DNA of 64,000 bases from a virus, in the UHGV virus genome UHGV-1378817; one strand, 5' to 3'. The stretch's first letter is position 1; each line of letters begins with the position of its first letter. A program made the position numbers and the translations under genes. Shown one piece after another: positions 5,211 through 58,766 of the stretch. The notes beneath the pieces were generated by a model. The model was given only the letters and a program-made list of their open reading frames with translations. It had not been told where the DNA came from and did not search any database.

Positions 5211-5713
5211 AACTACCTCCTCTTCAAGTTATAGAAAAACTCACTGTATCGCTTTGTAACGAGCTTTTCTATCAAACTGGTGCGATTGCCTTACCTGGTA
5301 TAGTTTATATAGCTGTGGAGCGATTTAGGTGCCTTCTTGTCCGTTTCCACACATAAACTTCATCCAAGCTCGCGCGGGAGACTCTCAACCGACTCCTTAC
5401 GGCGCTGGCAAGCTTTCGTCGGTGGTCCACATCAGTGCTCGGCCTTTGGCCTGCGCTATCGCTTCGCTCCCACACATGTTAACAGACCTGCATGTATGCA
5501 CTTCTGTTATTGTGTGCACCAGGGAGGCCCGGCATCTCGCCCCTCGTAGGCGAGTGCCAATGAAGGGCCGACACTACCCATAGTAAGTAATAAATTTAAA
5601 ACATGGTACTTAGGATCTAGTATATTCTACATAAGTTAAGTATATGTACTTAGTACCATAAGTACTAGATCTTTTATTTTTTATTATTTAGTTATTTTAG
5701 TTATATTCTTTAT

Positions 5714-5795
5714 GTGTCCGTATCACGGACAGTTAGTGTCCGTATTACGGGCAGATGTGTCCGCGTGACGGACAGTAGTGTCCGTATCACGGACA
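5714..5795. repeat. four tandem copies of a 17-bp palindrome TGTCCGT-N3-ACGGACA (operator- or iteron-like array)
   Basis: Copies at about 5714, 5737, 5758 and 5779; two perfect (TGTCCGTATCACGGACA), two degenerate; spacing 21-23 bp. Confidence 0.6.
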
Positions 5796-5870
5796 GTTAC
5801 TAACCTCTGTTCCATAGCGAACATAAAACATACGAATCCTTATAGTACAGATATTTAAGTTTTTACTGGT

Positions 5871-6221
5871 CTAACCAGTTGTTGACATTCGAATAACCTC
5901 TTCTGGTGGCAAAACTTTGGAAAATGTGCATCTTTTACCTCTCCCTTGTGTGGATATTTCAACCACTCCTGCACATTCTAAAGTTTTAACGCACGCTGCT
6001 GCTTTTGTTTTCTTTATCCCAACATCTGCTGCAATTTTCCTTGTGCTGGGTGTGAAGCGTGAACTTCCTCCAAGCTTATACCAGTTGTGCAGGTAGCAGT
6101 ATACGATCTTGTCATACAAGTCAAGAACAACAACCTCCCCAGTTGTGTCATTCAAAACTTTTGACATAGACAGTATTTCAAGGGGGACTTTAAGATATAG
6201 CAGCTTATCCCCATCTTTCAT
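5871..6221 (-). CDS. putative helix-turn-helix DNA-binding protein
   Basis: 116-aa ORF; C-terminal segment TPSTRKIAADVGIKKTKAAACVKTLECAGVV looks like an HTH/winged-helix; sits next to the palindrome array. Confidence 0.35.
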   Translation of the reverse strand: MKDGDKLLYLKVPLEILSMSKVLNDTTGEVVVLDLYDKIVYCYLHNWYKLGGSSRFTPSTRKIAADVGIKKTKAAACVKTLECAGVVEISTQGRGKRCTFSKVLPPEEVIRMSTTG

Positions 6222-9407: not shown

Positions 9408-10121
9408 ATGCTGAATACCAAATTAATTGACAACCTGGAAAAACTGTCCCAACCTGAAAACTACCTTTGGTCTGCCAACTGGGTGGAAAACTGGAACCGT
9501 GTGGCAGCTAAAGTGAAAAAATCATACACACCATTCGAATTACAGCTTAGCTTCATTGAGGAAGAGTTCAATGAAGTTTTGGAAGAGCTGGAGAAAGGTG
9601 ATGGCGGAGATCACCTGCTAAAAGAGGCCTGCGATCTTCACGTTGTCACAAGTTATGCCGCTTATCTTGTTAATGATAATCACGAAAAGTGGTCAAACCT
9701 GTTTGATAATCCACAGGGTCTTAAGTTCAAGATCGGTGAGTTCTATGATACACTGATCGCTGCGAAAAACACCTCTAAGCAAAAAGCGTCCGCTTACCGC
9801 TTAGCAGAGTTGTCAACAGCTTTGCTGTTCCAGCTTCGCGGCGATGTGTGCGGGATGATGCGTAAGGTTCTCAAATCGAATGACAGCAAGTTTGCACGGG
9901 TCAACCATCTACGGTATTCACACGGTGCCAGTGCAGATATGCCTGCTGAACAACTCATCGAGTTGGAGATTAAAGATCTTGAGCGACGCTTTGATGGTCG
10001 ATATGAAGGTTTTGTTGCTAAGGAAGAATTCTACAACGGTAATAAAGTTATCATATTCCTTGACAGCAAAGGTAAGATCATGAAGCCTTCGAGCTTCAAG
10101 GATGTAACAGAGTATATTTAA
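9408..10121 (+). CDS. hypothetical protein, possibly MazG-like all-alpha NTP pyrophosphohydrolase
   Basis: FIEEEFNEVLEELEKGD...LLKEACDLHVV resembles the MazG EExxE...D acidic motif; weak. Confidence 0.3.
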   Translation: MLNTKLIDNLEKLSQPENYLWSANWVENWNRVAAKVKKSYTPFELQLSFIEEEFNEVLEELEKGDGGDHLLKEACDLHVVTSYAAYLVNDNHEKWSNLFDNPQGLKFKIGEFYDTLIAAKNTSKQKASAYRLAELSTALLFQLRGDVCGMMRKVLKSNDSKFARVNHLRYSHGASADMPAEQLIELEIKDLERRFDGRYEGFVAKEEFYNGNKVIIFLDSKGKIMKPSSFKDVTEYI

Positions 10122-43148: not shown

Positions 43149-43454
43149 ATGGCTAAATCTAAAGTTGAACTGTTCACCTCTCTTCCTTCTGACACTGCAG
43201 AACGTGATCGCCTTCGCAAAACAATCGAAGAGCTGGTGGAACTCCAGCTTCAGATTAAAGATCTGAAAGATGCCATCAAGGATATCATTCTCGTTGAGAA
43301 GCAGGATCATCTGTATTCTCCTAAATTCATCAAATCTCTGGTGGCTACAGAGTTCGATATTCGCTATGAGGCTGAAAAACGTCGCGCTAAAATCGAAGAA
43401 GAGGTTGAGCACATGTCTGAGGCAGACATTCTGTTCAAACGCTCTGTAGAATAA
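43149..43454 (+). CDS. hypothetical coiled-coil protein
   Basis: 101-aa charged ORF with AAGGAG RBS. Confidence 0.4.
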   Translation: MAKSKVELFTSLPSDTAERDRLRKTIEELVELQLQIKDLKDAIKDIILVEKQDHLYSPKFIKSLVATEFDIRYEAEKRRAKIEEEVEHMSEADILFKRSVE

Positions 43455-45317: not shown

Positions 45318-45446
45318 CACACAATTAGCTGCCCGGCTAAAGTGCTGGAAGCGCACCTATAACACATCTTTCAACTAAATTTCCTACCACCACAATCACT
45401 TACCTCCAACACATGACTGTTTGCTTGTTTAGTGAGCAGTCATGCC

Positions 45447-45474
45447 TTGACATTCTTGCCTATCCTGATAAAAT
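45447..45474 (+). promoter_or_regulatory. sigma70-like promoter reading into a GC-rich non-coding segment
   Basis: TTGACA-16 nt-TAAAAT with no ORF downstream; followed by about 270 nt of unusually GC-rich sequence ending in a G-run and T-rich stretch near 45730-45760. Confidence 0.4.
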
Positions 45475-47725
45475 TAAGTTCTTCTCTTTTCTTTTACCGA
45501 GTAATTCGGGTTTTCTGTTCTCTTCGGTTTGAAGGGGTATGGAGATACACCTGAGTGAACAGGGTGAACAACCGAACCATTGGCTATGGCATTAGCATGG
45601 CGAAGCGGACGGGTGACGAAAGAGGGGCCGGAGGACACCAGTCACTGCCATATGATATATGGGTGATAACCTGAAGAGTCTGAATAAGTGTTTAAGTACC
45701 AGTCAGAGGAAAAGGTGAATGGTAGCCGAAGGGGGAGGGGGGTTTCTTGTATCTTTAATTTGTATATTATGTATACACTTGTAAACCAATATCATCTAGA
45801 TCTGTTTACCACACAAAGTGGATAGAGACAAATATTACCTATTAAACTTGAATTATTTATAGAAAATACCACAACACCACTTAAGTCTTTGATTTTACAC
45901 ACAAATCTTACAGATATTCAACCTCCATATTTAACATACCTGTAACATATTCCATACTCTACCTGCCTGATCAATTTCCCCAACTACATCCCTCATATTT
46001 CCCCTGTCTGTACTACCCTGCCCCACCGGGAGTCCCGTCATATCTGGCTTTCCAGCAAATATCACACCCACAAATATCATGCCTGAAGAGGGTTTCATCC
46101 CATAATACCTGCCTTGCCTGAAGAGCGCTTCATACACCACGTAAATTTTTTAATTGACCTCCCCTGCCCCGCCGGAGAGGTTGGCTTTTCCCACACAGAC
46201 CTGAAGAGTCAGCCAGAAATATCTGAATAGGCCCAGTTCTACCACGATTTTGACCTGACCTACAGGAGCGCTGCCAGGCGGACGAAATGGGAATACTTCT
46301 CATTCTTATAACAATTCTCAAATATCGAGGCAGTGAGGCAAATTAATAGGCCAGGCCGTTCACACAGTGGCACAACATTTGCAACCTATCTTGTGGGGGT
46401 GAATGAGAATACCTATCATTGTGAGAACCATTATCATTACGGGCAATTTAACATAATACCCATTATGCGCACCACTGGTGATACATACAGGGATTGATAA
46501 CACGAGTTACAGTTTACGCATATAACAATCATATTTCTTACTATTTGTGTGGGATATAGTTAGCAGCCGATAGATTAGATATTGACCTGTGGACTTCCAA
46601 CCGTCTAGACGTCTAAGCGCCCACACAACAAGGCTTATACATACATTACTGAATGTAAACAGGGCCGCAAAAATGCTACCATACCAGTTTGTAAATTTTC
46701 ATGCAGCACTTGACAAAGAGGAGGAAAACTTGTCTGACACAATGTCACACAATATGACACAATAACGGCTGTTACCATTCCATATCTCACTGTTTACGCA
46801 TAGACTGTTTACGCCTGGATAGTTTACACCTTGACAGTTTACACAGATATGATAAGCCATGACATTCGTTTGCATGAAAACAATTAGCAAGTTAACAATT
46901 AACAAGTTAATAATATATGACATAATATAAAAGCAGGGCAACTATTAGAAGATCTATAGTTGCCTTGCTTGTTATGTCATGATTAACTAAATACAAGGCA
47001 ACTATGATCTGATTAATAGTTTGCAGACAAACTATCACGGGGGTGATGGTTACTGCTTTTATATTATGTCGCGACTCCGTCGCGCCATGCCATTCGTTTG
47101 CATAGTTGCCTTATTGTTACAGATAAAATAATTGTATTGTTAATTATTTCTTATCTTTCTATTAGTCATCTAATGATTCCGGTTAGTATAGTAACGTACA
47201 GTAAACATTAGACGACTAAATATTTCTATGTTTATGATAACCTATCGTGACAATTCCGGACTGTTTACGAAAAATGTTGACACCTGAGCTGATTTATGTT
47301 ATGCAATTTAAACGAATAATTATTTTATGCAGGTATTGACTATTCCGTTATTCTATGGTTGGAATAAATACTTAGCAAGCTATAGAATGGTGAGCGTACG
47401 TAAATTCTGAGATTTGTCGGCTATAGTTATACTCGATTTTTCACGTAGAACACGCTTTTTGGTTTGTGTAAGTGTATGACTTATAAAGATTTTTAGTTGT
47501 TGACAAGATATTGAAGATGTGCATCAGGTTAAATTTTGTGCAATAGCTGCATTACGTGCAATTTTGGAAGGAAAACTGGTAAAAATAGCACCGATACCAC
47601 ACAATGAAAGGTTATGCAATAGCTATTTTATATGTATATTTGTACAGTGTGCAGGATTGATGGCTCGTCAATTATTCCACTTGCCAGGTAGGGCCGTTTA
47701 TGGTAGGGGAAGAGCAGACAAAAAG

Positions 47726-47744
47726 AAAGGGGCCTAAGCCCCTT
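47726..47744 (-). terminator. rho-independent terminator (minus strand)
   Basis: On the minus strand AAGGGGC-ttag-GCCCCTT followed by TCTTTTT, immediately downstream of the stop of ORF 47763-48182. Confidence 0.5.
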
Positions 47745-47762
47745 GATAATTCAGTTAAAAAA

Positions 47763-48182
47763 TTATAATGATTCGTATATTTCAAAAATCCGATTTGCCA
47801 GGTCGTTACGGTAGCGGAATTTTTCCTCACGTTTGATCATCAGATCTTTAAAGCCGTATTCTTTAAGCACTTCATTAACTTTATGGCGGCATACCTTCAT
47901 ATTATCTTGAGCGTCACCAATAAACTTGTTGCTGTGGTGCATTGCTTTAATTTCTTCTTCCAGGACCAGGGCAACTACCCGTACCGGATCAAGCTGGTAG
48001 GCGGTAACATCGATGCGGCATTGTAGACGGCTTTTAACGTCTGCCACCGGATATACTGCAACCTCTTCCCCGTCAACATTGACAATAATTAGTTTACCAT
48101 CGATTTCGAATCCTTTCGCCGCCGGACCGTGACAAAAAGCGTTATCAAAGCTATATGCCGGATTATTAGATTTAATGTTCAT
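47763..48182 (-). CDS. hypothetical protein
   Basis: 139-aa ORF. Confidence 0.45.
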   Translation of the reverse strand: MNIKSNNPAYSFDNAFCHGPAAKGFEIDGKLIIVNVDGEEVAVYPVADVKSRLQCRIDVTAYQLDPVRVVALVLEEEIKAMHHSNKFIGDAQDNMKVCRHKVNEVLKEYGFKDLMIKREEKFRYRNDLANRIFEIYESL

Positions 48183-48326
48183 GGTGTTTTTACCTCTTAG
48201 TTAATTTTCTTACAACTTCCCTTCAAAAAAGAATATAGCAAAACTGCCGATCCCTGTCAACCAAGGATGGCATAATTTTTATGTGATCAAGGGGCTTTAT
48301 TGCCCCTGACCATGTAACTTGTTGTA

Positions 48327-48590
48327 TTATTTGTTATTCATCCAGTTTTCCCAAGCTGCCTGATAATCTGCCTCACTGCGGCGGATCTCTTCTTGCTCTT
48401 CAAGCCGGATCTCTTCTTCTAGGTACCCCAAGATATCGGCTTTTTTGGTCTGGCGTAACATCCAATCATCTTTTTTACGGGTAAAGATCTTATATGCTTT
48501 CTCGCAAACCTCTTTTTTGCTACCTTTTTGGACTTCAAGAACTTTGTAGGCCATGTACTGAACTAGTTTGAGCTGATCAAGACGTTTCAT
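48327..48590 (-). CDS. hypothetical protein
   Basis: 87-aa charged ORF. Confidence 0.4.
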   Translation of the reverse strand: MKRLDQLKLVQYMAYKVLEVQKGSKKEVCEKAYKIFTRKKDDWMLRQTKKADILGYLEEEIRLEEQEEIRRSEADYQAAWENWMNNK

Positions 48591-48653
48591 GATGTTTACC
48601 TCTTTATGGGGTTCTGGTTTGGTGTGGGCCTTTTGGCCCGTGTCATTATCTTA

Positions 48654-48926
48654 TTACTTACGGCGGCAAAATTCAAGTGTTTTTAATTGATAATCTTCCT
48701 CAGCTTGGAGTACAACCGCCTCGATCATTTCGTTGGCATTGGTGAAGCCATACCCTTGAGCGAACTCATCCGCGCCACCTTCGTGATCATGTTCTGCGTT
48801 CATCGCTTCCACAAAATGGAATTCAAGATTATTGAGGTAAGGGCTTGATGTTCCGTCCTCTTTTTCGATGAGATCCCAGATAGCATTAAAACGTGATTCG
48901 ACTTCTTGATTAATCCAGCTTGACAT
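48654..48926 (-). CDS. hypothetical acidic protein
   Basis: 90-aa ORF. Confidence 0.4.
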   Translation of the reverse strand: MSSWINQEVESRFNAIWDLIEKEDGTSSPYLNNLEFHFVEAMNAEHDHEGGADEFAQGYGFTNANEMIEAVVLQAEEDYQLKTLEFCRRK

Positions 48927-49139
48927 AATGTTTTCCTCTCTTCTGGTTGTTGTGTGGGCACTTTTGCCCCTTCAAGATAAATGATACCCCCACCACCTGG
49001 CAGATGTCAACGGTTTTTATAGTTTTTTATATAACAGGCACCCCCGGTGATTGTCTCCCCCCGTCGCCAGGTGCCTGCCGTGAAACAAGTATAACAAAAA
49101 ACAGGACCATTGCAAGCCCTGTTTTGTAGTTTATAAATA

Positions 49140-49331
49140 TTATATTTTTTCGCCTATGTAGTCCGGTCGGTTTTTCTCTGTCATGCGCTTTAGCAATTCT
49201 TGCATGTTGCTTATGGCTTGTAGTGTATCCCCTTCCAGGCTTGAATCGACATAATCAGGATCGTCTATGACCTTTCTATGATTATGATAACGCAGTACCG
49301 CCAATACCTTTCTAACTTGTTCGATATTCAT
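49140..49331 (-). CDS. hypothetical protein
   Basis: 63-aa ORF. Confidence 0.35.
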   Translation of the reverse strand: MNIEQVRKVLAVLRYHNHRKVIDDPDYVDSSLEGDTLQAISNMQELLKRMTEKNRPDYIGEKI

Positions 49332-49480
49332 TTTTACCGCTCTTTAAAACAAGGTGCCAACCGTTTCCAATAGATCACTAACTATCAGGACAATACTGAT
49401 CAGCACATATCTAACCATAAGGGGAAAGAGCGCCAGCGATCCCGCCACAATCCCCAAGGTGATGATTATCTTTCTCATGG

Positions 49481-49765
49481 TTAACGGTTTACGTAAGTTT
49501 TCCCGTTCACGGTTATGGGCAGATCCTCCAGGTCTGGATCTTCCTTAAGGTCGCGAGCAAGCTCACCGCACCGGATACCCTCGAATCCGTAGTACTCTGT
49601 CGTGCCGTCCTTAAAAGTTTTAGCGGCAAGGCATAAGCGATAAGTAACCCCGATTCGATTGACGGCATGAATATCCGTTAGATTAACCTCTTTTGCCAGC
49701 TCTTTAGCCATTACAGGCGCATTAAGTCCAACAACCAGGGCAACCACTGCGATCATCTTTTTCAT
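49481..49765 (-). CDS. small secreted protein
   Basis: MKKMIAVVALVVGLNAPVMAKE signal-peptide-like N-terminus. Confidence 0.45.
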   Translation of the reverse strand: MKKMIAVVALVVGLNAPVMAKELAKEVNLTDIHAVNRIGVTYRLCLAAKTFKDGTTEYYGFEGIRCGELARDLKEDPDLEDLPITVNGKTYVNR

Positions 49766-49856
49766 TGTGTCTATCCTCTTTCTGCTACGTTTAAGGCGGA
49801 GGTAACCGCCTGTTTATGCTTTGTTGGTTAATTTTCGGGTATCGGTATAAATTAAA

Positions 49857-50072
49857 CTATGCTGTACGTTCAACTATAACAACGGTTTGGGGGATCTCAC
49901 CTTCCACCACTAATAAGGCCTTTTTCTGCGTGATGGATATCTTTACCCGTTGCAGCGTGGCGGTGAAGTCTTTCATTTCGTCACGTGGTGTTTTAGTGCA
50001 ATACCAGATCTCAGGCTTGCCGATCTGTAAGTTGCGTAAAAATTCCGTTTTGCCTGTTTTGTTAGTGATCAT
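49857..50072 (-). CDS. hypothetical protein
   Basis: 71-aa ORF. Confidence 0.35.
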   Translation of the reverse strand: MITNKTGKTEFLRNLQIGKPEIWYCTKTPRDEMKDFTATLQRVKISITQKKALLVVEGEIPQTVVIVERTA

Positions 50073-50263
50073 TTGCCAACCTCACCCGATACCGTTGGAA
50101 GACAAGATCACATTAGCCATGGTTGCAATCAGGCCAATACCCAGGGCAATAACCAGGATCACCGCATCAATTAATTTCTGTTTCATGGTGTTTATTCTCT
50201 TCTGTTAGTAACCTTATTCATGGGGCCGCTACTACAGCCCCAGGGTAAGGCGGCTATGTGCTT

Positions 50264-50551
50264 TTAGTGTTTCATTCCAACCATCGCGGCACGGATCGCC
50301 GTAGTGCTGTACTTGAAGCCGTCCGGGGTCTTATCTTGTCCGGTTAGCTCCAGAAAAAGCATCATATCCCGCGCCGCATCATTACGATTAGCATTAGCGT
50401 TAATAAAGCCTTGGGCCAACCGGTACAATGACTCATCGTTATTAATCCAAAGGCTTACATTCCAATGAGTTTTGTTTTTGTAACCGTTATAACCTTTATT
50501 GCTTTTCATGGTGTTTACCTCTTCTTTGTTCCAGGTGGCGGACCATTCCAC
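50264..50551 (-). CDS. hypothetical protein
   Basis: 95-aa ORF. Confidence 0.4.
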   Translation of the reverse strand: MEWSATWNKEEVNTMKSNKGYNGYKNKTHWNVSLWINNDESLYRLAQGFINANANRNDAARDMMLFLELTGQDKTPDGFKYSTTAIRAAMVGMKH

Positions 50552-50602
50552 CGCCTTATGTATTATGCTTTGTTAGATGGTTGTTTGTTGTCAAACTATT
50601 TT

Positions 50603-50782
50603 AACGATAATCATCGTACGCTTTATTAACCTGGCGAATATAACATTCAAAAGCCAGATCAATAGATTTATATTCACGGATATATTCACCATAGGAAACC
50701 ACATACATTTCTATAGCTTCCTCATATGCGAGGAGAATAGAATCTAAGCCTACGATCTCAGTCTTTGCAATAATAGCCATGA
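50603..50782 (-). CDS. hypothetical protein (~59 aa)
   Basis: Manual translation MAIIAKTEIVGLDSILLAYEEAIEMYVVSYGEYIREYKSIDLAFECYIRQVNKAYDDYR; preceded on the minus strand by TTGACA-16-TAGTAT promoter, GC hairpin and AGAGGA RBS. Confidence 0.35.
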
Positions 50783-50855
50783 TTTTTATCCTCTTTGTGG
50801 TTGGTGGGGCTTGTTGCCCCCTTTGATTTATATACTACAGTCTTATATGGTCATG

Positions 50856-51089
50856 TCAACTATTTTCAAAAAATTTTTCTGCTGTAATATTTTTCCCGGT
50901 AGGGTTCGCTACTTTCAAAATTTTATCATGCACTGGACGCCCAAAAGAATAAGCGCCGTACACAGTGCACCAATAATCGCCGTCAGGCTGTACTATTACC
51001 GCCGCATAGGGTACGCCTTTTTCGTTTTTGCTGACAAAATAGATCACGTTGCCATTAATAGCCTCGGCGCGTTTAATTTGTTCCATCAT
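50856..51089 (-). CDS. hypothetical protein
   Basis: 77-aa ORF. Confidence 0.4.
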   Translation of the reverse strand: MMEQIKRAEAINGNVIYFVSKNEKGVPYAAVIVQPDGDYWCTVYGAYSFGRPVHDKILKVANPTGKNITAEKFFENS

Positions 51090-51145
51090 GATGATTTGCC
51101 TCTCTTTATTTTCATAATTGGGGGGCCTTTTCGGCCCAGCCAGGT

Positions 51146-51430
51146 TTATTTATTGATAGCGTGCAGCGGGAAAGGTACGCCAGGTTGATAGATAACTTTT
51201 ACAACCTCATCAGGACAAAAGAAGTTGCAGAACTCACCGCAATAGGCCTCATCCTCTTTCAACTCTTCATCAATATACTCAAAAAAGTAGTCGATGCTTG
51301 GATAATCTTGCCCTGGGTTATAGTCAACCATTGTCAGGACCAGTTCAAGATCGTTGCGTAGGATATGCATACCCGCTTTTAAGTATTTTGCTTCCATTTC
51401 TACTACATCGCCAGCGGTAACAATAGCCAT
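51146..51430 (-). CDS. hypothetical acidic protein
   Basis: 94-aa ORF. Confidence 0.4.
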   Translation of the reverse strand: MAIVTAGDVVEMEAKYLKAGMHILRNDLELVLTMVDYNPGQDYPSIDYFFEYIDEELKEDEAYCGEFCNFFCPDEVVKVIYQPGVPFPLHAINK

Positions 51431-51657
51431 GGTTTTAACTCCTATCTATCCGGTTAATGATTGGGGGCCGCCCCCCTGATGAGTCCTATTATCCATATTG
51501 TAGGGCTTGATGCAAGTACTTATTTAAAAAATTTTTTAAGCGCTCCGTATGCCGTTGTAACGCCAAAATAATAAAGGCCATGCAACCGCATAGCCTTTAT
51601 GTGATTATATCGCTGCAGGCCCTGCCAGGGGCCTTATTTTGCATCATTTTACCGGAA

Positions 51658-51957
51658 CTATACAGAGAAAACATCGTTCACAATAGCGATCACAATGCCG
51701 CCCACCTTGTCACGGTCAACAATGCACAAATCACCATAAATCATGTGGTAGTCTGGATGATCTTTCACGGAATAGTCAATGAGTGTTTTCTTGTCGTCCA
51801 GCTTTGTAACTTCCATTCTCATAACGATATGAGAATCATCAAAGGCATTATTCCGAAAAGTCATAGCCTGACCACCAGGGCACCCAGTGATCTCAACTTC
51901 CACACCGTCTACGATCTGACCATCAAAGAAATAAAGATTATTAGCCGGGATAAACAT
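51658..51957 (-). CDS. hypothetical protein
   Basis: ORF 51658-51966 trimmed to ATG (MFIPANN) with AAGGAG RBS; downstream of palindromic promoter copy 1. Confidence 0.4.
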   Translation of the reverse strand: MFIPANNLYFFDGQIVDGVEVEITGCPGGQAMTFRNNAFDDSHIVMRMEVTKLDDKKTLIDYSVKDHPDYHMIYGDLCIVDRDKVGGIVIAIVNDVFSV

Positions 51958-52001
51958 GTTTATCACTCCTTGTTAACTGCGTGTTATTTTACCACGATTA
52001 A

Positions 52002-52047
52002 AATTTACTTTACCGATGGCCCTGAAGTCAAGGCCATCTAAAAATAA
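52002..52047 (-). promoter_or_regulatory. conserved palindrome-embedded promoter element, copy 1
   Basis: About 46 bp, near-identical to copies at 55714 and 56335; on the minus strand a TTGAC -35 sits inside the inverted repeat GATGGCC...GGCCATC. Confidence 0.55.
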
Positions 52048-52049
52048 AT

Positions 52050-52250
52050 TTACAGGCCTACAATCTCTTTGATTCGTTTTACTGCTGCCTCAGCGCCTTG
52101 GGGGTAGAAATTATGGTAACCGATCACGCGAGTGATACTAATCGCCGTTTGATGATCTTCATAATCGCCCTTGAAGATTTCTTGACCGTCAATCAGCACG
52201 GCAATTTTTTCTTCTTTTTTGAAGTTAATAACGCGGATATTGTTGCTCAT
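52050..52250 (-). CDS. hypothetical protein
   Basis: 66-aa ORF. Confidence 0.4.
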   Translation of the reverse strand: MSNNIRVINFKKEEKIAVLIDGQEIFKGDYEDHQTAISITRVIGYHNFYPQGAEAAVKRIKEIVGL

Positions 52251-52727
52251 TTTGTTTCTCCTTTCTGGTTTTTGTGTTGGTGGGGATTAGCTCCCCGTTG
52301 ATTGTCATTATCCACATTCTGGACCGGATTGCAACACCCCGGAAGAAAAATTTTTTAAAAAGATAGGCCCCATGATCGGGGGCTGTTCTTAGTTACTTAC
52401 TGCGATAAAGTACATCCCTACGCCTAGCAATATTTCAAGGGCGATGATCTCAAGCCATACCATAACCCGGCGCGCCTTATCGGTGCGGGGCTTATCCTTG
52501 GTTGTCATCGTCTCCCCCTTTCCTCCTGGTAGTAGTGACGCGATCTACAATGACCCCCAGGAGTCCTATCACGACACACATCACGAGAAAAATTATCTCC
52601 GCTGTTGTTCGGTCCATTATTATAAAAGTCCTCAAGATCAGGCCTGAAAATAAAGCTTTCGTTATTGAATCCATCACGCCAGGCGGCTGGCTTCAAATCT
52701 TCATTAAAGGGATTAATTAACGTGGTA

Positions 52728-53099
52728 TTATTTAAACGGCTGGCCCACATATTTTCTATTCCTCTCAAATAGGCGATCCGCCTCAGTTAAACATATCTCA
52801 TGGGCTTGATCTCTGGTTTTAGCTTCATCAAAAACCTGTTGCGCCAGGCTGCAACGTAGGGAGACTGGAAGATCACTATAATAGGCGTTGACAAACGTTT
52901 GAGCGTCGTACAGGTCTGAAAATACTTTACCCTTTCTATTATCGCCTTTGTCAACAATTGCAAGGATAACAAGTACAATAGTTGCAACCACCCCCAGGAA
53001 AATAGATATAATAAACCATAAAAAGGCGGATCTACCTATCTTGCCAGCGATCCAGGCGTTGAACAAGGCAACTACTACAGCCAAAATAATAAATTCCAT
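52728..53099 (-). CDS. membrane protein
   Basis: ORF 52728-53132 trimmed to Met MEFIILAVVVALFNAWIAG; two hydrophobic helices; AGAGG RBS. Confidence 0.45.
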   Translation of the reverse strand: MEFIILAVVVALFNAWIAGKIGRSAFLWFIISIFLGVVATIVLVILAIVDKGDNRKGKVFSDLYDAQTFVNAYYSDLPVSLRCSLAQQVFDEAKTRDQAHEICLTEADRLFERNRKYVGQPFK

Positions 53100-53163
53100 T
53101 CTATGTACCTCTTTTGTAGTTCTGTTTAACAATAAGGCGGCAAATATGCCGCCTGTTACCTGA

Positions 53164-53544
53164 TTAAAAATTATCGCCGTAAATCTTTCCGCTTTCTACC
53201 CATACCACCACGCGAGGCATACTATCCCACACGTCTTGTTTTAGATTGAGCGCGTGCAATTCTTCGGTGGTGCTCATACCGGGCACGGGCTGATTGTATA
53301 CTGCAAAACGACCGCCTGCATAATCATAGGCCAGGGTTAAATCACACTGGATCATCTTTTTGATCATGGCATTAAGCATGGCGTTAGCCGCATATTGATC
53401 ACGTTTTAAAGGCAACTCTTTGATTAGTTTGCGATAGTTTTCGATATGGTCGCACACTGTTTCACGAGGAAGATCTTTCATATCTTCACGGAATGTAACC
53501 AGGTTAAACATAACGGTGTCAATAGCCTTGGTAGTGTTTTTCAT
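53164..53544 (-). CDS. hypothetical protein
   Basis: 126-aa ORF. Confidence 0.4.
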   Translation of the reverse strand: MKNTTKAIDTVMFNLVTFREDMKDLPRETVCDHIENYRKLIKELPLKRDQYAANAMLNAMIKKMIQCDLTLAYDYAGGRFAVYNQPVPGMSTTEELHALNLKQDVWDSMPRVVVWVESGKIYGDNF

Positions 53545-53634
53545 GATGTTATCCTCTTTGTTTTGTGTTGGGGCAAACGTCTTGCCCCCTTGAGTTTTAA
53601 TATAGCAGGTTTTTAGGTTATTGCAACACTTTAT

Positions 53635-54258
53635 TTATGAAAAAGTCATCTCACCATATTCATCGACATCAAACCGCCAATCATTGGCCTCGATAAGGCC
53701 GATCAGGTTTTCTGCGGTGAACTGTTCTAGATAGGCCTCCTTCAGGTCTACGTAAACCTTGCGGGATAGCTCCCGTACCGTCTCGGTGATCAGTTCTTCC
53801 AGGTCTTCCACTTTGTTTTCTTGTTTGGCGGTCAGATCTAGCCAAGTGGTATCAATGTACCCGCTTACAGTGTTTTCATGGCTGTAATGGCTGTACTTGT
53901 CGCGTTCAACACTGGCTGATAACTCGCCATCGTGCATTGTGCCGAACAAGTGACGAATTGATCGGAACTTGGTCAGGGCCTTTACTTTACGCAAAAATTT
54001 TTCTAAATCCACGTTTTCAGCACTGATTGACGCGCCGTCACCCTGGCACCAAAAGCCGGACCAATGTACTTCGGTATCTTCAAGGCCGTACTCTGGAAAG
54101 ATATATTCTTTGTAGTGTTCAATTACACTTTCTGCAAAAAAGTTATCCCCGCTGTGTTCTTCTCTTTCGCGGACCATTTCAATAGCTTTTTCTTTTTGTT
54201 CGTCGGTCAGCACGTCGAAAGATAAATTGTAACCTGTGGTAATGTTAACGGTGGTCAT
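53635..54258 (-). CDS. hypothetical protein
   Basis: 207-aa ORF; contains FWCQGDGASIS; no family assignable by eye. Confidence 0.45.
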   Translation of the reverse strand: MTTVNITTGYNLSFDVLTDEQKEKAIEMVREREEHSGDNFFAESVIEHYKEYIFPEYGLEDTEVHWSGFWCQGDGASISAENVDLEKFLRKVKALTKFRSIRHLFGTMHDGELSASVERDKYSHYSHENTVSGYIDTTWLDLTAKQENKVEDLEELITETVRELSRKVYVDLKEAYLEQFTAENLIGLIEANDWRFDVDEYGEMTFS

Positions 54259-54332
54259 GATATTTTCTCCTATTTTCTTTGTTAGTGGCGGGAAAACTTC
54301 CCGCCTGTGTGCTTAAGTATACTTATTGAGAT

Positions 54333-54593
54333 TTACTTGTCAACACTATTTTTTAAATTATTGTGGCGTAAAATATTCAAGATCTCTTCAACGTCATCAA
54401 CACGGCGGCAATTTTTAAACGCTACCAATTGCCCCAGGATTTTAATCACTGGACGGCCTTGCCAGTGCCCTTGGAGAAAGCGCGCTTTAACTTTATCGGT
54501 GGAACTATCACGCCACCAAATAGCCTTGTTGTTGCAGTAGTAAAAATTATTCAGGATAACATCAACTTTATCAAAATTTTTTAATTTACGCAT
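54333..54593 (-). CDS. hypothetical protein
   Basis: 86-aa ORF preceded by a minus-strand TTGACA-16-TATACT promoter. Confidence 0.4.
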   Translation of the reverse strand: MRKLKNFDKVDVILNNFYYCNNKAIWWRDSSTDKVKARFLQGHWQGRPVIKILGQLVAFKNCRRVDDVEEILNILRHNNLKNSVDK

Positions 54594-54997
54594 GGCGTTT
54601 ACTCCTTTCTCTCTTTGATGTGGTTAGTATAGCTAACCTGTTGACGATGTCAATGATATTTTTAACGCCATGAAACGGCCCTGGGCGATGTTTTCAGGTT
54701 AAAGGGGGCGATTGCATAGGTGGGGCCTTTTTGGCGCTTACAGGGCCAACCAGGGGCGCTATTCGTAGGATAGAAATAAAAAGCCCCGCACAATGGCGGG
54801 GCGTTGGTTGTTATTTGCCTTTGTGGCGGTATCGTTCCGCCTGTCGTTCACGTTCCAAAAGCAGGCCCGGTAATTTGCGATCATAATGATTCCGCCAGAT
54901 CTTCCCAAATCTTTTTGGCTTATTCAGTTTATTGTTGCGCTGGCGGCGTTCCGGCAGCTCTTCGGAAGCATGAGATCGCTTTACAATCTTCTCAAAA

Positions 54998-55351
54998 TTA
55001 ATCTTCATATATTCCCCCCTTGCTAACTTCAATATTGGCCTGAATAGCCCGGATACGGCGCTTTATAACTTCCTGATCTGTGTGATCGTATCCCCAAAAG
55101 TCTACGATTTTTGCGCCTCCAGCCTTTAGGCGGTATAGTGTTTCTTGCATCTTGTAAGCCGGGATCGGTCGCGGTGTTACCTGGTCGCCCTTCTCATTCT
55201 TGTACTTGATAATGTAGTCTTCATTGTCGTTGAATACCCAAAATGGGTATTCTGTGAGCGCGTTGCTCTCTTTTTCGTTTTTAGATTGGATCTTGTTTAC
55301 AATTAAAGCCGTAGCAATAGCGCCAATAATAAAACTTGCCCCGCTGATCAT
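54998..55351 (-). CDS. membrane-anchored protein
   Basis: ORF 54998-55414 trimmed to Met MISGASFIIGAIATALIV; AAGGAG RBS. Confidence 0.4.
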   Translation of the reverse strand: MISGASFIIGAIATALIVNKIQSKNEKESNALTEYPFWVFNDNEDYIIKYKNEKGDQVTPRPIPAYKMQETLYRLKAGGAKIVDFWGYDHTDQEVIKRRIRAIQANIEVSKGGIYED

Positions 55352-55426
55352 GTACTTTCTCCTTTCATTGTGTTGATAAACTGTCTTTATAGATGGCCCT
55401 GCTACCAGGACCACCGAAAAAACAGC

Positions 55427-55672
55427 TTATTTGACGATACCGACAAAACAGATCCCGCCTTCCCCTATATAGGCAATATCGGTAATTTTATAATTTGTCA
55501 AGATCCGCGTGTTCAGATCATTAATAAAATCGGTCATCGCGTTGGTGTAGTTGTCTTCCGTGTCTAAGGCATAATCCCAGGTGTAAACCTTTTTACGTCC
55601 GAAGCCTTTTACCATGATACGGGCGCTTTTGGTGTTGGTAGGGGCATAATATTTAGTGATTAGTGCTGCCAT
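55427..55672 (-). CDS. hypothetical protein
   Basis: 81-aa ORF with AGGAG RBS; downstream of palindromic promoter copy 2. Confidence 0.45.
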   Translation of the reverse strand: MAALITKYYAPTNTKSARIMVKGFGRKKVYTWDYALDTEDNYTNAMTDFINDLNTRILTNYKITDIAYIGEGGICFVGIVK

Positions 55673-55713
55673 GGTTTTAACTCCTATGCATTAGTTCAGT
55701 GTTAACAGTATAA

Positions 55714-55759
55714 AGTTTACTTTATTGATGGCCCTAAAGTCAAGGCCATCTAAAAATAA
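55714..55759 (-). promoter_or_regulatory. conserved palindrome-embedded promoter element, copy 2
   Basis: AGTTTACTTTATTGATGGCCCTAAAGTCAAGGCCATCTAAAAATAA on the plus strand; same element as copies 1 and 3. Confidence 0.55.
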
Positions 55760-55761
55760 TC

Positions 55762-56103
55762 TTACTCGTTTTCTTCCAGCTCCGCAAGCTCTTCTTTTGC
55801 TTCTTCCAACCCTGTCTGTAATTCCTGGTATTCTTCATCGTCCTCAATATCCAGGCTGTCGATGTAGTCGCTAAATCCGCAGCGGTAAGCGATAGGATCT
55901 AGCTCCTTGAGGATACGCGACGGAAGAAAAGAAATGTTTCCGATCATAATTTCGCCGTAGATCTCGTCTAACCATTCATCATAGTTTTCGTCGTACTTGT
56001 CCTCGTCGATTTCAAAGTTATCGATCTTATTCTCAAGGTCTGCGATCTGTTTTTTCAGCGCGGCGATCTGCATAGCTTTTTCTGCGGCGGTCATAGTAGT
56101 CAT
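55762..56103 (-). CDS. hypothetical acidic coiled-coil protein
   Basis: 113-aa ORF, highly acidic C-terminus. Confidence 0.4.
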   Translation of the reverse strand: MTTMTAAEKAMQIAALKKQIADLENKIDNFEIDEDKYDENYDEWLDEIYGEIMIGNISFLPSRILKELDPIAYRCGFSDYIDSLDIEDDEEYQELQTGLEEAKEELAELEENE

Positions 56104-56179
56104 GGTGTTTTTCTCCTTTTGTGTGTTCTGGGAAGTTTTCCCGTTTATGTGCTTATTATATCGATTTAAGTTAGCTTGT

Positions 56180-56302
56180 CAATTAAAAGTTTAAGAAAAA
56201 TTTTGCGACACCGTTGGCGCTACCCATCAACATTTGCGCCAGGATGTACCCAATGATGCAAACGATGATGGTTACCTTTGTGTGCTGGCGTGTAGTACTC
56301 AT
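56180..56302 (-). CDS. small hydrophobic membrane peptide (~40 aa)
   Basis: Manual translation MSTTRQHTKVTIIVCIIGYILAQMLMGSANGVAKFFLNF; G-rich RBS; downstream of palindromic promoter copy 3; below the ORF-track cutoff. Confidence 0.35.
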
Positions 56303-56334
56303 CTTTAAGCCCCCTTTTCCGCTCAACTGTGGTT

Positions 56335-56380
56335 AGTTTACTTTATTGATGGCCCTGGTGTCAAGGCCATCTAAAAATAA
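56335..56380 (-). promoter_or_regulatory. conserved palindrome-embedded promoter element, copy 3
   Basis: AGTTTACTTTATTGATGGCCCTGGTGTCAAGGCCATCTAAAAATAA; differs from the other copies mainly in the 3-nt palindrome centre. Confidence 0.55.
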
Positions 56381-56382
56381 GC

Positions 56383-56787
56383 TTAATAAGTTTTCAGTAC
56401 TTTCCCGTCCAATCTGTCAAGCTGGATCTCGATAGCTGCAGAAAACCTATTGTAAACCACATCACCCATAGAATCCAACCAGTCTATGACATTATACACT
56501 TGCTCTTTGTTCTTGCAGGTCCGGATCCGTTTCATGATGTAAGCCGGATCAATATTGGTACTCTCGTTGGTGTTCCCCTGTACCTTGTTTGCCGTATTAG
56601 TTACATCTTTAATGGCCTTTACCACCACCTGGAATGGCTTTAAGGTGCCTTTTGCGTTCATCTCACGCGCTTTTGCGGCGCGGTTGTTATATGTTACACA
56701 ACGGCGGCAAATGTTGATCAAATGCATGTCAATAATTTTTTCATCGTTTGCCAACTCGTTCATGATGCGGCGTACGTTCTTATTCAT
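56383..56787 (-). CDS. hypothetical protein
   Basis: 134-aa ORF; minus-strand TTGACA promoter, GC hairpin and RBS upstream. Confidence 0.45.
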   Translation of the reverse strand: MNKNVRRIMNELANDEKIIDMHLINICRRCVTYNNRAAKAREMNAKGTLKPFQVVVKAIKDVTNTANKVQGNTNESTNIDPAYIMKRIRTCKNKEQVYNVIDWLDSMGDVVYNRFSAAIEIQLDRLDGKVLKTY

Positions 56788-56869
56788 GATCTTTTTCCTT
56801 TGTGCTGGCGGGAAACATTCCCGCCTTTTGTGTCTAGTTTATTTAAATTTTGCAGCGTGTCAATGATTT

Positions 56870-57268
56870 TTATTCGTGGGCGCATGTTACAATGTGCTTT
56901 TTATAGCCCAGGTGGTCAGCAAGTGCCGACAAAAACTCTTCTTCGTAGATCCAGCCGTCGGCAGTGATCCCCATAGCATTTAATGCGCTCTCAAGTGCTG
57001 CGTTAGCTTTATCGTAACCGTGACCGCTCGCCTTGCCGCCAGTATAACCGTACTTATTGTTCTTGTTGTCGTGAATCCAAAACACGCAGTAGTGAGTGTT
57101 ACCACTGGCGGCGGCATAATACCGGATCTCAGCTACTTCGTGCAAATTATTGTCATCGTCCAGGCCCACCAGATTATAAGCCTTGTAAAATCCACGATCA
57201 CGGCGGCAGTTCTTGACATCAGAAAAAGAAAAGTCCGCATTATCAAAATTAAAGGTAGTGGTTTTCAT
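56870..57268 (-). CDS. hypothetical protein
   Basis: 132-aa ORF. Confidence 0.45.
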   Translation of the reverse strand: MKTTTFNFDNADFSFSDVKNCRRDRGFYKAYNLVGLDDDNNLHEVAEIRYYAAASGNTHYCVFWIHDNKNNKYGYTGGKASGHGYDKANAALESALNAMGITADGWIYEEEFLSALADHLGYKKHIVTCAHE

Positions 57269-57332
57269 GATTTTATCCTCTTAGTGTCTTTTGTGCTTTT
57301 AGTGTATTTGGTGTCGGACTATATGTCAATAC

Positions 57333-57530
57333 TTATTTTTTATTAAACCAGTGGTTGATCTGTCCTTTTGTCAGGGCGCAACGATTAAGCTGTTGCCGGG
57401 TATAGCTCTGACCGCGACGGAATTTATAAAGGCCTTGCCCGTTGTTGATGGTTACGTCCACCTGGCAAACCATTTGATCGGTGACCACCTGGCGAGTGTT
57501 GCGACGTACTTTGATCCCGTATGCGTTCAT
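57333..57530 (-). CDS. small basic protein
   Basis: ORF 57333-57608 trimmed to Met MNAYGIKVRRNTRQ with AGAGGA RBS; minus-strand TTGACA-16-TATTAT promoter near 57590-57620. Confidence 0.4.
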   Translation of the reverse strand: MNAYGIKVRRNTRQVVTDQMVCQVDVTINNGQGLYKFRRGQSYTRQQLNRCALTKGQINHWFNKK

Positions 57531-57611
57531 AAATTTATCCTCTTTACTGGTTAGTGCGGTGTTGTTCACCTTGTAGGGTAATAATACCATGATTAACCTT
57601 GTTGTCAACGA

Positions 57612-57752
57612 TTATTTTAAATTATTTTTATGATAGAATCCACCTGCCGCCCCCGCCAGGTTAACCACCATTTTTTCGTACTCTTCTTTATGTTCTCGCG
57701 CTTCTGTATCATTAATCACTACATTTCCCAGGTGAGTAGCATTACCTTTCAT
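57612..57752 (-). CDS. hypothetical small protein (~46 aa)
   Basis: Manual translation MKGNATHLGNVVINDTEAREHKEEYEKMVVNLAGAAGGFYHKNNLK with GGAGGT RBS. Confidence 0.3.
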   Translation of the reverse strand: MKGNATHLGNVVINDTEAREHKEEYEKMVVNLAGAAGGFYHKNNLK

Positions 57753-58766
57753 TTTTGTACCTCCTCTTCAATTGTTTTCCCTACAGCATGGGCCTACCAG
57801 GTTTGCAAGATTTCACCCTCTCCCACCTGGTCAGTTAGGTCCTGCCAGGCTGGCCCCGCCAGGTTGCAACGGTTAGCGCATCAGGTTAGAAAAATTTTTT
57901 GAAAAGGTGTTGACAGCGGCCCCGCCAGGTGGCACAATATACCTATCGAAAGGACGGCAGGCACCGGTGACGGGGGAGACAACCACCGGGGATGGGCGCT
58001 GCATAAAATGAGAACGGTTATCATTATCATTTAAAAATTTATGCAAAAAATCCTTGCCTTCTTTGTCCTGTGTGATACTATAATAACAAGCCGGGGCAAC
58101 AGGGGCCGGGAGACAATCACCGGGCCTGCCCGTTATTCTGCAAACGAGAATGATTATCATTCAAAATTCTAAATGAGAACTCCTCGCATTTAATAAATTT
58201 AATTAGCACGCTAATTACCCTCCGTAACAATTTCCTATAAAATAGTATCCACTAAAATATTCCCATATAGAAATTTTAAAAATCCATTTCTGAAAACGAA
58301 AAATCGATTTCGTCCCCAAAAATTTCAGGTCGAGAGCTGGAACGATTTCCAGAAAATCCGATTCAGAAAACGAAAAACAGATCGAGTACTGAGAAATTTA
58401 TCGAGAAAAATTTTCAGAAAATTCAATCTTTGAAACGAAAAACAGATCGAGTACTTGGAAAGCTGTACCGCAACTTCAAGATAGTGGCTGGATTATTGCC
58501 ATAAAAGGCCAAGGGCGAGTGGGAAAGTTCTGGTAGAAGGGTGTGAGCATACGCGGAAAATCTGGAATGGTAGCCCGGAATATGACGCAAACGATAGGAT
58601 GAGTGGTTCAGCTCATCGTGTCTACCCTGAAAAATCCATTTTAGTTTTCGATCCGTTTTCTGATTTTCTAAGAATTTTAAAATATCTGGCCTGGTGAAAT
58701 ATCAAAAAGGAGGAAATCCATTTTAGAAATCCCCCTTATACTTGATATGCCAGAAATTTTCAAGTA
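57753..58766. repeat. 1-kb ORF-free, repeat-rich intergenic region
   Basis: No credible ORF; GCCCCGCCAGGT(T/G) repeats, two tandem paralogous units, 68-bp-spaced direct repeats, AAATCCATTT motifs; itemised in findings. Confidence 0.55.

Follow-up and report, generated by a model that had tools for sequence, protein, structure and literature searches.

Palindromes resembling host Fur operators in the gene-free islands of an rV5-like coliphage, and their possible role in coupling virulent phages to host iron

What reads a short motif that recurs in two distant, gene-free regions of a virulent phage? The question is raised by the UHGV virus genome UHGV-1378817, of which a stretch of 64,000 nucleotides (hereafter, the window) was analysed. 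The window belongs to an rV5-like virulent coliphage (Vequintavirus), with 92–97% identity to rV5-like coliphages, and is co-linear, in reverse orientation, with phage naam. Island 1 (~45318-47762) is gene-free and sits between convergent gene blocks; it corresponds to the box drawn as 'non-coding' in the rV5 genome paper (PMC3606486). Island 2 (~57753-58766), annotated in the same paper with doubtful open reading frames (ORFs), breaks a long minus-strand array of small genes. Apart from the motif, the two islands have nothing alignable in common. A first-pass annotation of the sequence had offered three readings of the motif: a site for a common DNA-binding protein, a common RNA element, or the start of leader peptides. 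The first of these is supported by the palindromic form of the sites, by sequence changes that fall mostly at their centre, and by their match to a known operator, and it can be made specific. The best explanation, to which we give a probability of about 0.55, is that the host ferric uptake regulator, Fur, uses the motif as an operator and would thereby gate non-coding transcription in island 2.

The first-pass annotation listed four copies of a 16-bp motif. All four sequences lie where it placed them, but only three are exact: GAGAAYNNTTATCATT is matched at 46423, 58010 and 58146 (GAGAACCATTATCATT, 46423-46438; GAGAACGGTTATCATT, 58010-58025; GAGAATGATTATCATT, 58146-58161), and the fourth copy (GAGAATACCTATCATT, 46405-46420) has a C instead of the consensus T at position 9. 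Chance does not account for this count, as dinucleotide-shuffled versions of the window gave an expectation of 0.01 matches and never as many as three. We found that the 16-bp motif is the core of a larger unit, a 19-bp palindrome of the form AATGAGAAT-N-ATTCTCATT, of which a Salmonella phage carries a perfect version and Cronobacter phage CR8 one that deviates at a single outer base. At up to four mismatches the window contains six copies (46286, 46402, 46420, 58007, 58143 and 58172; ~0.8 expected). Three lie in each island and none elsewhere in the 64 kb, so that the proposed restriction of the motif to the two ORF-free regions holds. The same is true of the 137-kb naam genome, where copies occur in the islands only, plus one weak coding match with four mismatches.

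Fur boxes are among the best-understood bacterial operators. We built a Fur matrix by palindromic expectation-maximisation, with no seed consensus, from nine Fur-regulated upstream regions of E. coli K-12 (fepA-fes, fepD-entS, fepB-entC, fhuA, feoA, ryhB, fecI, cirA and fiu). The matrix returned the consensus AATGATAATCATTATCATT, and the best site in each training region scored between 15.4 and 22.7 bits. Five of the six window copies score as Fur boxes (13.5–24.1 bits), the strongest of them above every E. coli training site. By this measure the window sites fit the host Fur operator at least as well as the strongest Fur boxes of E. coli do, and are equivalent in sequence to its top-ranking operators; in 74 kb of E. 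coli DNA, the ryhB Fur box alone reaches at least 22 bits. Six positions of at least 13 bits were found in the 3.1 kb of island DNA versus 0.03 expected (1000 dinucleotide shuffles of the islands), and none outside the islands in the 64 kb. These six positions represent five distinct boxes and a 6-bp-shifted overlap at 58013.

In island 1, the box at 46286..46304 (AATGGGAATACTTCTCATT; 13.5 bits) has two mismatches to the palindrome and is invariant in six Vequintavirus sequences. The box at 46402..46420 (AATGAGAATACCTATCATT; 15.0 bits) contains the 46405 copy and starts 18 bp, or three hexamers, before the box at 46420..46438 (TGTGAGAACCATTATCATT; 19.1 bits), which contains the 46423 copy. Relatives vary in the latter only at central positions 9-11 (CCA, CTG or TAG), and its arms are invariant. 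In island 2, a box with one extra in-phase hexamer occupies 58007..58031 (AATGAGAACGGTTATCATTATCATT; 22.2 bits, with the overlapping 58013 site at 16.1 bits) and contains the 58010 copy. Counted by hand, its minus strand, GATAATGATAACCGTTCTC, agrees with the classical consensus GATAATGATAATCATTATC at 16 of 19 positions, and the site is identical to the fecI box TATGAGAATGGTTATCATT at 17 of 19. The strongest site, which we call box 1, lies at 58143..58161 (AACGAGAATGATTATCATT; 24.1 bits) and contains the 58146 copy; it is the box conserved across genera and adjoins the block ...AGACAAWCACC..YGCCCGYTATTCTGCAAA. A degenerate third box (AATGAGAACTCCTCGCATT; 58172..58190) has four mismatches and scores below 10 bits. 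It begins 29 bp after box 1, the spacing also seen in the arrays of relatives.

The sites also have the internal architecture of Fur boxes. They match GATAATGATAATCATTATC or its 9-1-9 form AATGATAATNATTATCATT, as judged by matrix scores and local shuffles, and contain three or more NAT(A/T)AT-type hexamers in 6-bp phase, as seen in the extra hexamer at 58013 and in the 18-bp offset between 46402 and 46420. A single base in each half-site separates the palindrome from the symmetric Fur box AATGATAAT-N-ATTATCATT. By our own reading, box 1 in most relatives is GCAAAT GAGAAT G ATTCTC ATTCAA, and the GAGAAT half-site is also contained in the strongest boxes of E. coli (ryhB, fecI and fhuA). The exact palindrome was moreover found in at least 120 stretches of bacterial genome. 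We recorded the ORFs reading away from it in the 80 loci listed, none of which is enterobacterial, so that they bear on the protein family only. Enriched among these genes are those for FUR (4), FeoA (3), FeoB (2), FTR1 (2), ZnuA (3), solute-binding proteins (7), TonB Plug domains (2) and extracytoplasmic function (ECF) sigma factors (2). Such surroundings are what a Fur-family operator would be expected to have: at the family level, the same sequence stands beside iron and metal uptake genes and fur genes in bacteria.

Local duplication might have produced such repeats with no function at all. A direct duplication of ~136 bp in island 2 holds both stronger copies (58007 and 58143) together with a repeated block, GGGAGACAAYCACCGGG, and four of the six window copies (the GAGAAY..TTATC set) share one orientation, as leftovers of duplication in AT-rich non-coding DNA would. 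We consider this extremely improbable, given that the islands are otherwise unalignable with each other, that scoring positions in local shuffles are so rare, and that the arrays have been kept in genera between which the non-coding DNA around them has become unalignable.

That conservation centres on island 2. A block of ~75 nt (58106-58197) that includes the 58143 box is 78–87% identical across other genera and another subfamily, in which the non-coding DNA around it is unalignable. The phages that share the block infect Escherichia, Klebsiella, Salmonella, Cronobacter, Pectobacterium, Serratia and Proteus. Ten relatives (Phapecoctavirus, Seunavirus, Certrevirus, Mydovirus and unclassified groups) carry between one and five boxes, most of them 29 bp apart start to start, and the first box always stands beside the same conserved block. 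The top box in each of nine relatives from other genera scores 22–25 bits, and that of W70, an unclassified Vequintavirinae coliphage, 13.9 bits. Within the genus the islands are 92–100% identical overall, and footprinting adds little beyond the pattern already described, in that most differences in the boxes fall at the weakly specified central positions 9-11. For the flanking ORFs, the only matches were to PHROG families of unknown function, and an IMG/VR search with a flanking protein returned two close relatives as its sole matches. One of the relatives, Salmonella phage R7 (PQ002170), is filed under Demerecviridae, starts in the equivalent of island 2 and has its box region (L006 2050-2129) annotated as 'attL'; both the taxonomy and the att annotation look doubtful, as the sequence there is clearly of rV5/PVP-SE1 type.

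The ten loci have a common layout: one or two rightward sigma-70-type promoters that oppose the flanking genes are followed by a GC-rich segment with a near-invariant core (AGACAAWCACC), then by the boxes, and then by iteron-like repeats with GATC. In the window, the promoter-like site P1 (57910..57938, plus strand; TTGACA-17-CACAAT with TG before the second hexamer, 10/12 matches) is directed against the flanking minus-strand genes, and equivalent tandem rightward promoters were called in the relatives. P2 (58054..58084, plus strand) was read from the sequence as TTGCCT-19-TATAAT or as an extended -10, TGtGATACT, and aligns with TTGCAA-17-TATATT in CR8 and BIS47. The conserved GC-rich block is present twice on the plus strand. 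Its first copy (GGGAGACAACCACCGGG, 57974..57990; direct repeat D6) is part of the ~136-bp duplication that also carries a box, and the core of the second (GGGAGACAATCACCGGG, 58108..58124) is invariant at six of seven columns (AA-CACC) in 11 sequences. Three iteron-like repeats of ~57 nt (GAAAACGAAAAAcAGATCGAGTAC; repeat family D1) occupy 58266..58461, and in relatives the box arrays are likewise followed by equivalent GATCGAGAMCC repeats. Measured by hand, box 1 starts 59–63 bp past the -10 hexamer of the second promoter in the window, CR8, BIS47 and phAPEC8. Some genera have a further promoter after the box array, which in BIS47 starts 22 bp past the last box. Island 1 also carries iteron-like repeats (ACWGTTTACRC at 46509, 46789, 46804 and 46834, within 46509..46849; repeat families D3 and D6).

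The rV5 annotation places a gene over this arrangement. ORF198, a 95-aa ORF on the minus strand (window 57873-58160), covers both island-2 Fur-type boxes and the promoters. It is doubtful as a gene and probably not one, because a 5-nt insertion lies inside the ORF in one relative and a 1-nt indel near its 3' end in two others.

Two further GC-rich elements were seen near P1. In nine relatives, P1 is followed by a GC-rich element of ~90 nt (..CGCCACCCCACGGCGWAAAGGCGGGGCTAAC..GGAAGGTGGATCGCCGGTAG; L005 1878-1969, L006 1831-1927, L007 1820-1916, L008 1810-1905 and equivalents in L133-L138) that is almost invariant across genera. Its consensus fold is -21 kcal/mol with one covarying pair only and no Rfam match. 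The element is absent from the window, where P1 is instead followed by a further copy of the GC-rich block plus a Fur box. GC-rich 17-mers like GGCCCCGCCAGGT occur in four copies in the window (57649-57665, 57838-57854, 57852-57868 and 57918-57934), one of which forms the spacer of P1. The equivalent promoters of relatives also have GC-rich, partly palindromic spacers, and the 17-mers may be a second binding site.

We infer that Fur might act as follows. In the infected cell, dimers of Fe2+-loaded Fur would occupy the boxes. The tandem promoters P1 and P2 of island 2 would transcribe non-coding DNA only, that is, the conserved GC-rich segment and then the iteron-like repeats, and bound Fur, as an iron-dependent repressor or roadblock, would gate this rightward transcription into the repeat region. 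It could do so either as a roadblock proper or by repressing an overlapping or adjacent promoter, and in some relatives it would also gate the further promoter just beyond the array. The repeat region would then be a candidate control region or replication origin, and island 1 a second putative Fur-loaded control region.

The same layout bears on the possibility that the motif acts in RNA. Since the boxes lie downstream of promoter-like sites they are probably transcribed, the palindrome is able to fold as a hairpin in rightward transcripts, and the ATG at the start of some copies could open Ile-rich leader peptides (MRTVIIII). Both RNA-level readings had been proposed in the first-pass annotation, and we now find them very unlikely. 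Rfam searches of the whole window at gathering thresholds, and of island 2 and the loci of four relatives at permissive E-values, returned only tRNAs and one chance match. For the conserved block plus box 1 in 11 sequences, RNAalifold gave a fold of -3 kcal/mol in which three of 12 pairs have a single double change each, with no informative covariation. Most window copies have unequal half-sites (GAGAA versus GATAA), which in RNA yields a G-A mismatch and not a compensated pair, and no U-tract follows the palindrome as it would in an intrinsic terminator. With respect to leader peptides, the start ATGAGAAC attributed to several copies is only partly right, as the copy at 58143 starts ACGAGAAT and that at 46420 starts GTGAGAAC. 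The ATG itself belongs to the palindrome (AATGAG...CTCATT), and the start-codon position reads ACG in the best copy (58143) and GTG at 46420. The Ile codons of the mini-ORFs are the ATT/ATC of the operator arm. The mini-ORFs vary in length and sequence between copies and relatives, have no Shine-Dalgarno sequence before them, and are followed by neither an attenuator nor a coding gene on the same strand.

Box arrays are not confined to rV5-like phages. Among the 80 loci listed by a scan of IMG/VR with the palindrome, 45 have at least two sites of at least 15 bits, clustered without a long ORF; having selected on the exact motif, the scan shows occurrence and not frequency. Viral contigs with 3–10 Fur-type boxes in ORF-free stretches, often 28–35 bp apart, include L166, L200 (5780-5906), L147 (5708-5945), L167 and L222. 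The first of these is the T5-like Salmonella phage SP01, in which the array (L166 4880-5060) lies in the untranslated part of the terminal repeat. L200, whose array has a large terminase as neighbour, and L147, with a T7-type portal and 53% GC, have no match to any sequenced phage. In T5 itself (AY587007, L267), palindromes E, G and I (9473-9491, 9577-9595 and 9612-9630) score 19.4, 25.3 and 20.1 bits, and the 9577 site reads AATGAGAATCATTATCATT. They lie within copies 1-4 of 'direct repeat C' in Repeat Region 3, the injection-stop-signal region at the boundary of first-step transfer, near the 7.9% nick. A preprint on this region discusses DnaA boxes and the palindromes, to which it ascribes either no known function or a possible part as cleavage sites; Fur goes unmentioned there (10.1101/866236). 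The T5 array resembles those described here in its motif and in its location in a large untranslated repeat-filled region, but belongs to an unrelated family (Demerecviridae) and is placed in the terminal repeat beside DnaA boxes and a nick site. We tentatively suggest that unrelated virulent lineages (rV5-like myoviruses, T5-like siphoviruses, the contig with a T7-type portal and other uncultured phages) may have acquired Fur-operator arrays independently. The arrays might make an early step iron-dependent, be it non-coding transcription, origin firing or DNA entry, or they might soak up Fur, which would reprogram host iron metabolism. Such convergence is possible, with the odds against it.

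Several observations weigh against Fur as the protein that binds the islands. The identification draws on sequence only, and the matrix on just nine regions. No iron-related genes were found near the islands, so that the usual association with iron-homeostasis genes is absent. The boxes start ~60–70 bp beyond the -10 hexamers of both P1 and P2 and do not overlap the -35/-10 elements of these clear promoters; the only promoter candidates that do overlap a box are weak, one being a leftward TTGAAT-18-CAGAAT whose spacer is box 1 and the other TTGTGG-17-TATCAT at 46402. Island 1 can be aligned within the genus only, and the conservation of its boxes is therefore weakly tested. GC skew gives no origin signal at island 2. 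Finally, G occupies position 6 in 69% of the phage half-sites and T in 30%, versus 17% and 69%, respectively, in the E. coli training sites. Because of this preference for GAGAAT half-sites, a binder with a slightly different preference from that of Fur is possible.

Such a binder could be a phage regulator or another host factor of Fur-like specificity. Besides the bias at position 6, phage repressors typically have arrays of palindromic operators next to early promoters, and most phage ORFs belong to no recognisable family, so that a novel DNA-binding protein could hide among them. We nevertheless judge this fairly unlikely. The GAGAAT half-site is shared with the ryhB, fecI and fhuA boxes, as noted above. 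A Pfam scan of 146 ORFs of a close relative found no member of the FUR family and a single helix-turn-helix (HTH) protein, of the HTH_36 family, which is encoded ~50 kb away beside a different palindrome, ACTGTCCGTGATACGGACAC. Pfam gave no significant match for the window counterpart (43149-43454) of ORF158, the 'transcriptional regulator' of rV5. Unlike a CI/Cro-type operator set, the palindromic arrays have no gene for a DNA-binding protein adjacent to the islands. Arrays of this motif moreover occur in T5-like phages, in contigs that encode a large terminase or a T7-type portal, and in further viral contigs whose GC content ranges from 21 to 57%. All these unrelated lineages would have to share one phage protein, whereas Fur is common to their hosts.

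Four copies of ACTGTCCGTGATACGGACAC are located at 5711-5795 (minus strand), directly after the HTH_36 gene (~5870-6220, minus strand; E = 1.5e-5). The gene and these copies are probably a separate repressor-operator pair. Among known bacterial sites, ARG boxes are paired 21 bp apart. ArgR boxes (AATGAATAATTATTCATT type) were rejected for the islands, as the distance between the TGA and TCA cores exceeds that of an ARG box by one base and the spacing is 18 or 29. The consensus sequences of DnaA, IHF, CRP and LexA do not fit. The PhiTE pseudo-ToxI non-coding RNA locus, present in a relative, was considered as the same island and set aside.

If Fur is the binder, binding itself might be the function. 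Replicated genomes, in hundreds of copies with about five strong boxes each, could titrate Fur off the chromosome and so de-repress host iron uptake and RyhB, providing iron for the phage's own iron-dependent ribonucleotide reductases. The phage does encode both an aerobic and an anaerobic enzyme, and the islands hold arrays of very strong sites with no regulated coding gene attached, as do the similar arrays of unrelated phages. It is well established that Fur boxes present in many copies relieve repression of the Fur regulon, the principle of the Fur titration assay that Stojiljkovic et al. are said to have introduced in 1994. However, the placement of the first box is constant with respect to a conserved promoter and GC-rich block, a constancy that a pure sink would not need, and for this reason we rank titration below regulation in cis. 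T5, which also bears an array, degrades host DNA early and would gain little from de-repression of the host (10.1101/866236). On balance we hold a Fur sink to be unlikely and prefer the gating of island transcription by Fur.

Compared with known Fur operators, the phage boxes are familiar in form and unusual in placement. The chromosomal boxes of E. coli (fecI, ryhB AATAATAATCATTCTCATT, fhuA and entC) share with AATGAGAACGGTTATCATT and AACGAGAATGATTATCATT of the window the 19-bp 9-1-9 palindrome and the 6-bp phasing. However, chromosomal boxes overlap the -35/-10 elements of promoters of iron-homeostasis genes, whereas the phage boxes lie in gene-free islands ~60–70 bp past a -10 hexamer, are associated with promoters of non-coding RNA only, form 29-bp arrays and favour GAGAAT half-sites. 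On temperate phages, the stx1 promoter is iron-regulated. In lambdoid prophages, a Fur box is located upstream of sitABCD (PMC6969025). Such boxes are likewise operators for host Fur on phage DNA, but they are single and control cargo genes of prophages that have become part of the host regulon; the phage described here has arrays, is strictly virulent and has no associated cargo gene.

The primary origin of T7 consists of tandem promoters followed by an AT-rich region, and T4 origins of a promoter and an unwinding element. We know of no origin mapped in rV5-like phages, and of no Fur boxes at T7 or T4 origins. Island 2 resembles these origins in that tandem promoters read into AT-rich, iteron-bearing DNA: AT content is 62–67% in 58000-58400 compared with 57% for the whole window. 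The replication proteins of the phage are also T7-like, with a family A polymerase and a gp4-like primase-helicase (PMC3606486). The GC skew peaks at 45770, where transcription changes direction at island 1.

Island 1 has further features of its own. Dense inverted repeats fill 46856-47150, including a perfect 18-nt pair (46919-46936 / 47053-47070) and several GGCAACTAT / ATAGTTGCC arms, and the 20-mer GCCATGMCATTCGTTTGCAT is duplicated at 46856 and 47084. Around 46240, some relatives (L145, L146 and L002 were compared) carry an insertion of ~50 nt with a hairpin (..GGGAGGCCCGAAGGGTCTAGCTTTCAGCTAG..); island 1 therefore tolerates indels here, and the Fur boxes 40 nt further on are unchanged. 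The GenBank records of several relatives begin at differing points inside island 1; we read these starts as arbitrary, giving no evidence of physical genome ends. About 17 records labelled 'Campylobacter phage' (e.g. D#, D1, C2 and A140) are 92–96% identical to this E. coli phage group in both islands; their host labels are probably wrong, or the phages contaminants. A third stretch without convincing ORFs, at window ~5250-5700, contains a GC-rich segment (ggtagtgtcggcccttcattggcactcgcctacgaggggcgagatgccgggcctccc...) that looks structured.

In the literature searched, we found no description of conserved Fur-box arrays in gene-free regions of virulent phages, or of a link between Fur and the T5 palindromes. 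Fur boxes as such and single Fur boxes of prophages are already known (PMC6969025). The presence of the arrays in related genera and in T5 suggests an undescribed link of virulent phages to host iron sensing. If Fur does bind these sites, the two conserved gene-free islands of rV5-like phages would acquire a concrete function, and the unexplained palindromes in the injection-stop region of T5 a candidate protein partner. It would also make a connection between the iron status of the host and lytic development of the phage directly testable, which would bear on phage therapy in iron-limited host tissues, rV5-like phages being common candidates for therapy and biocontrol.

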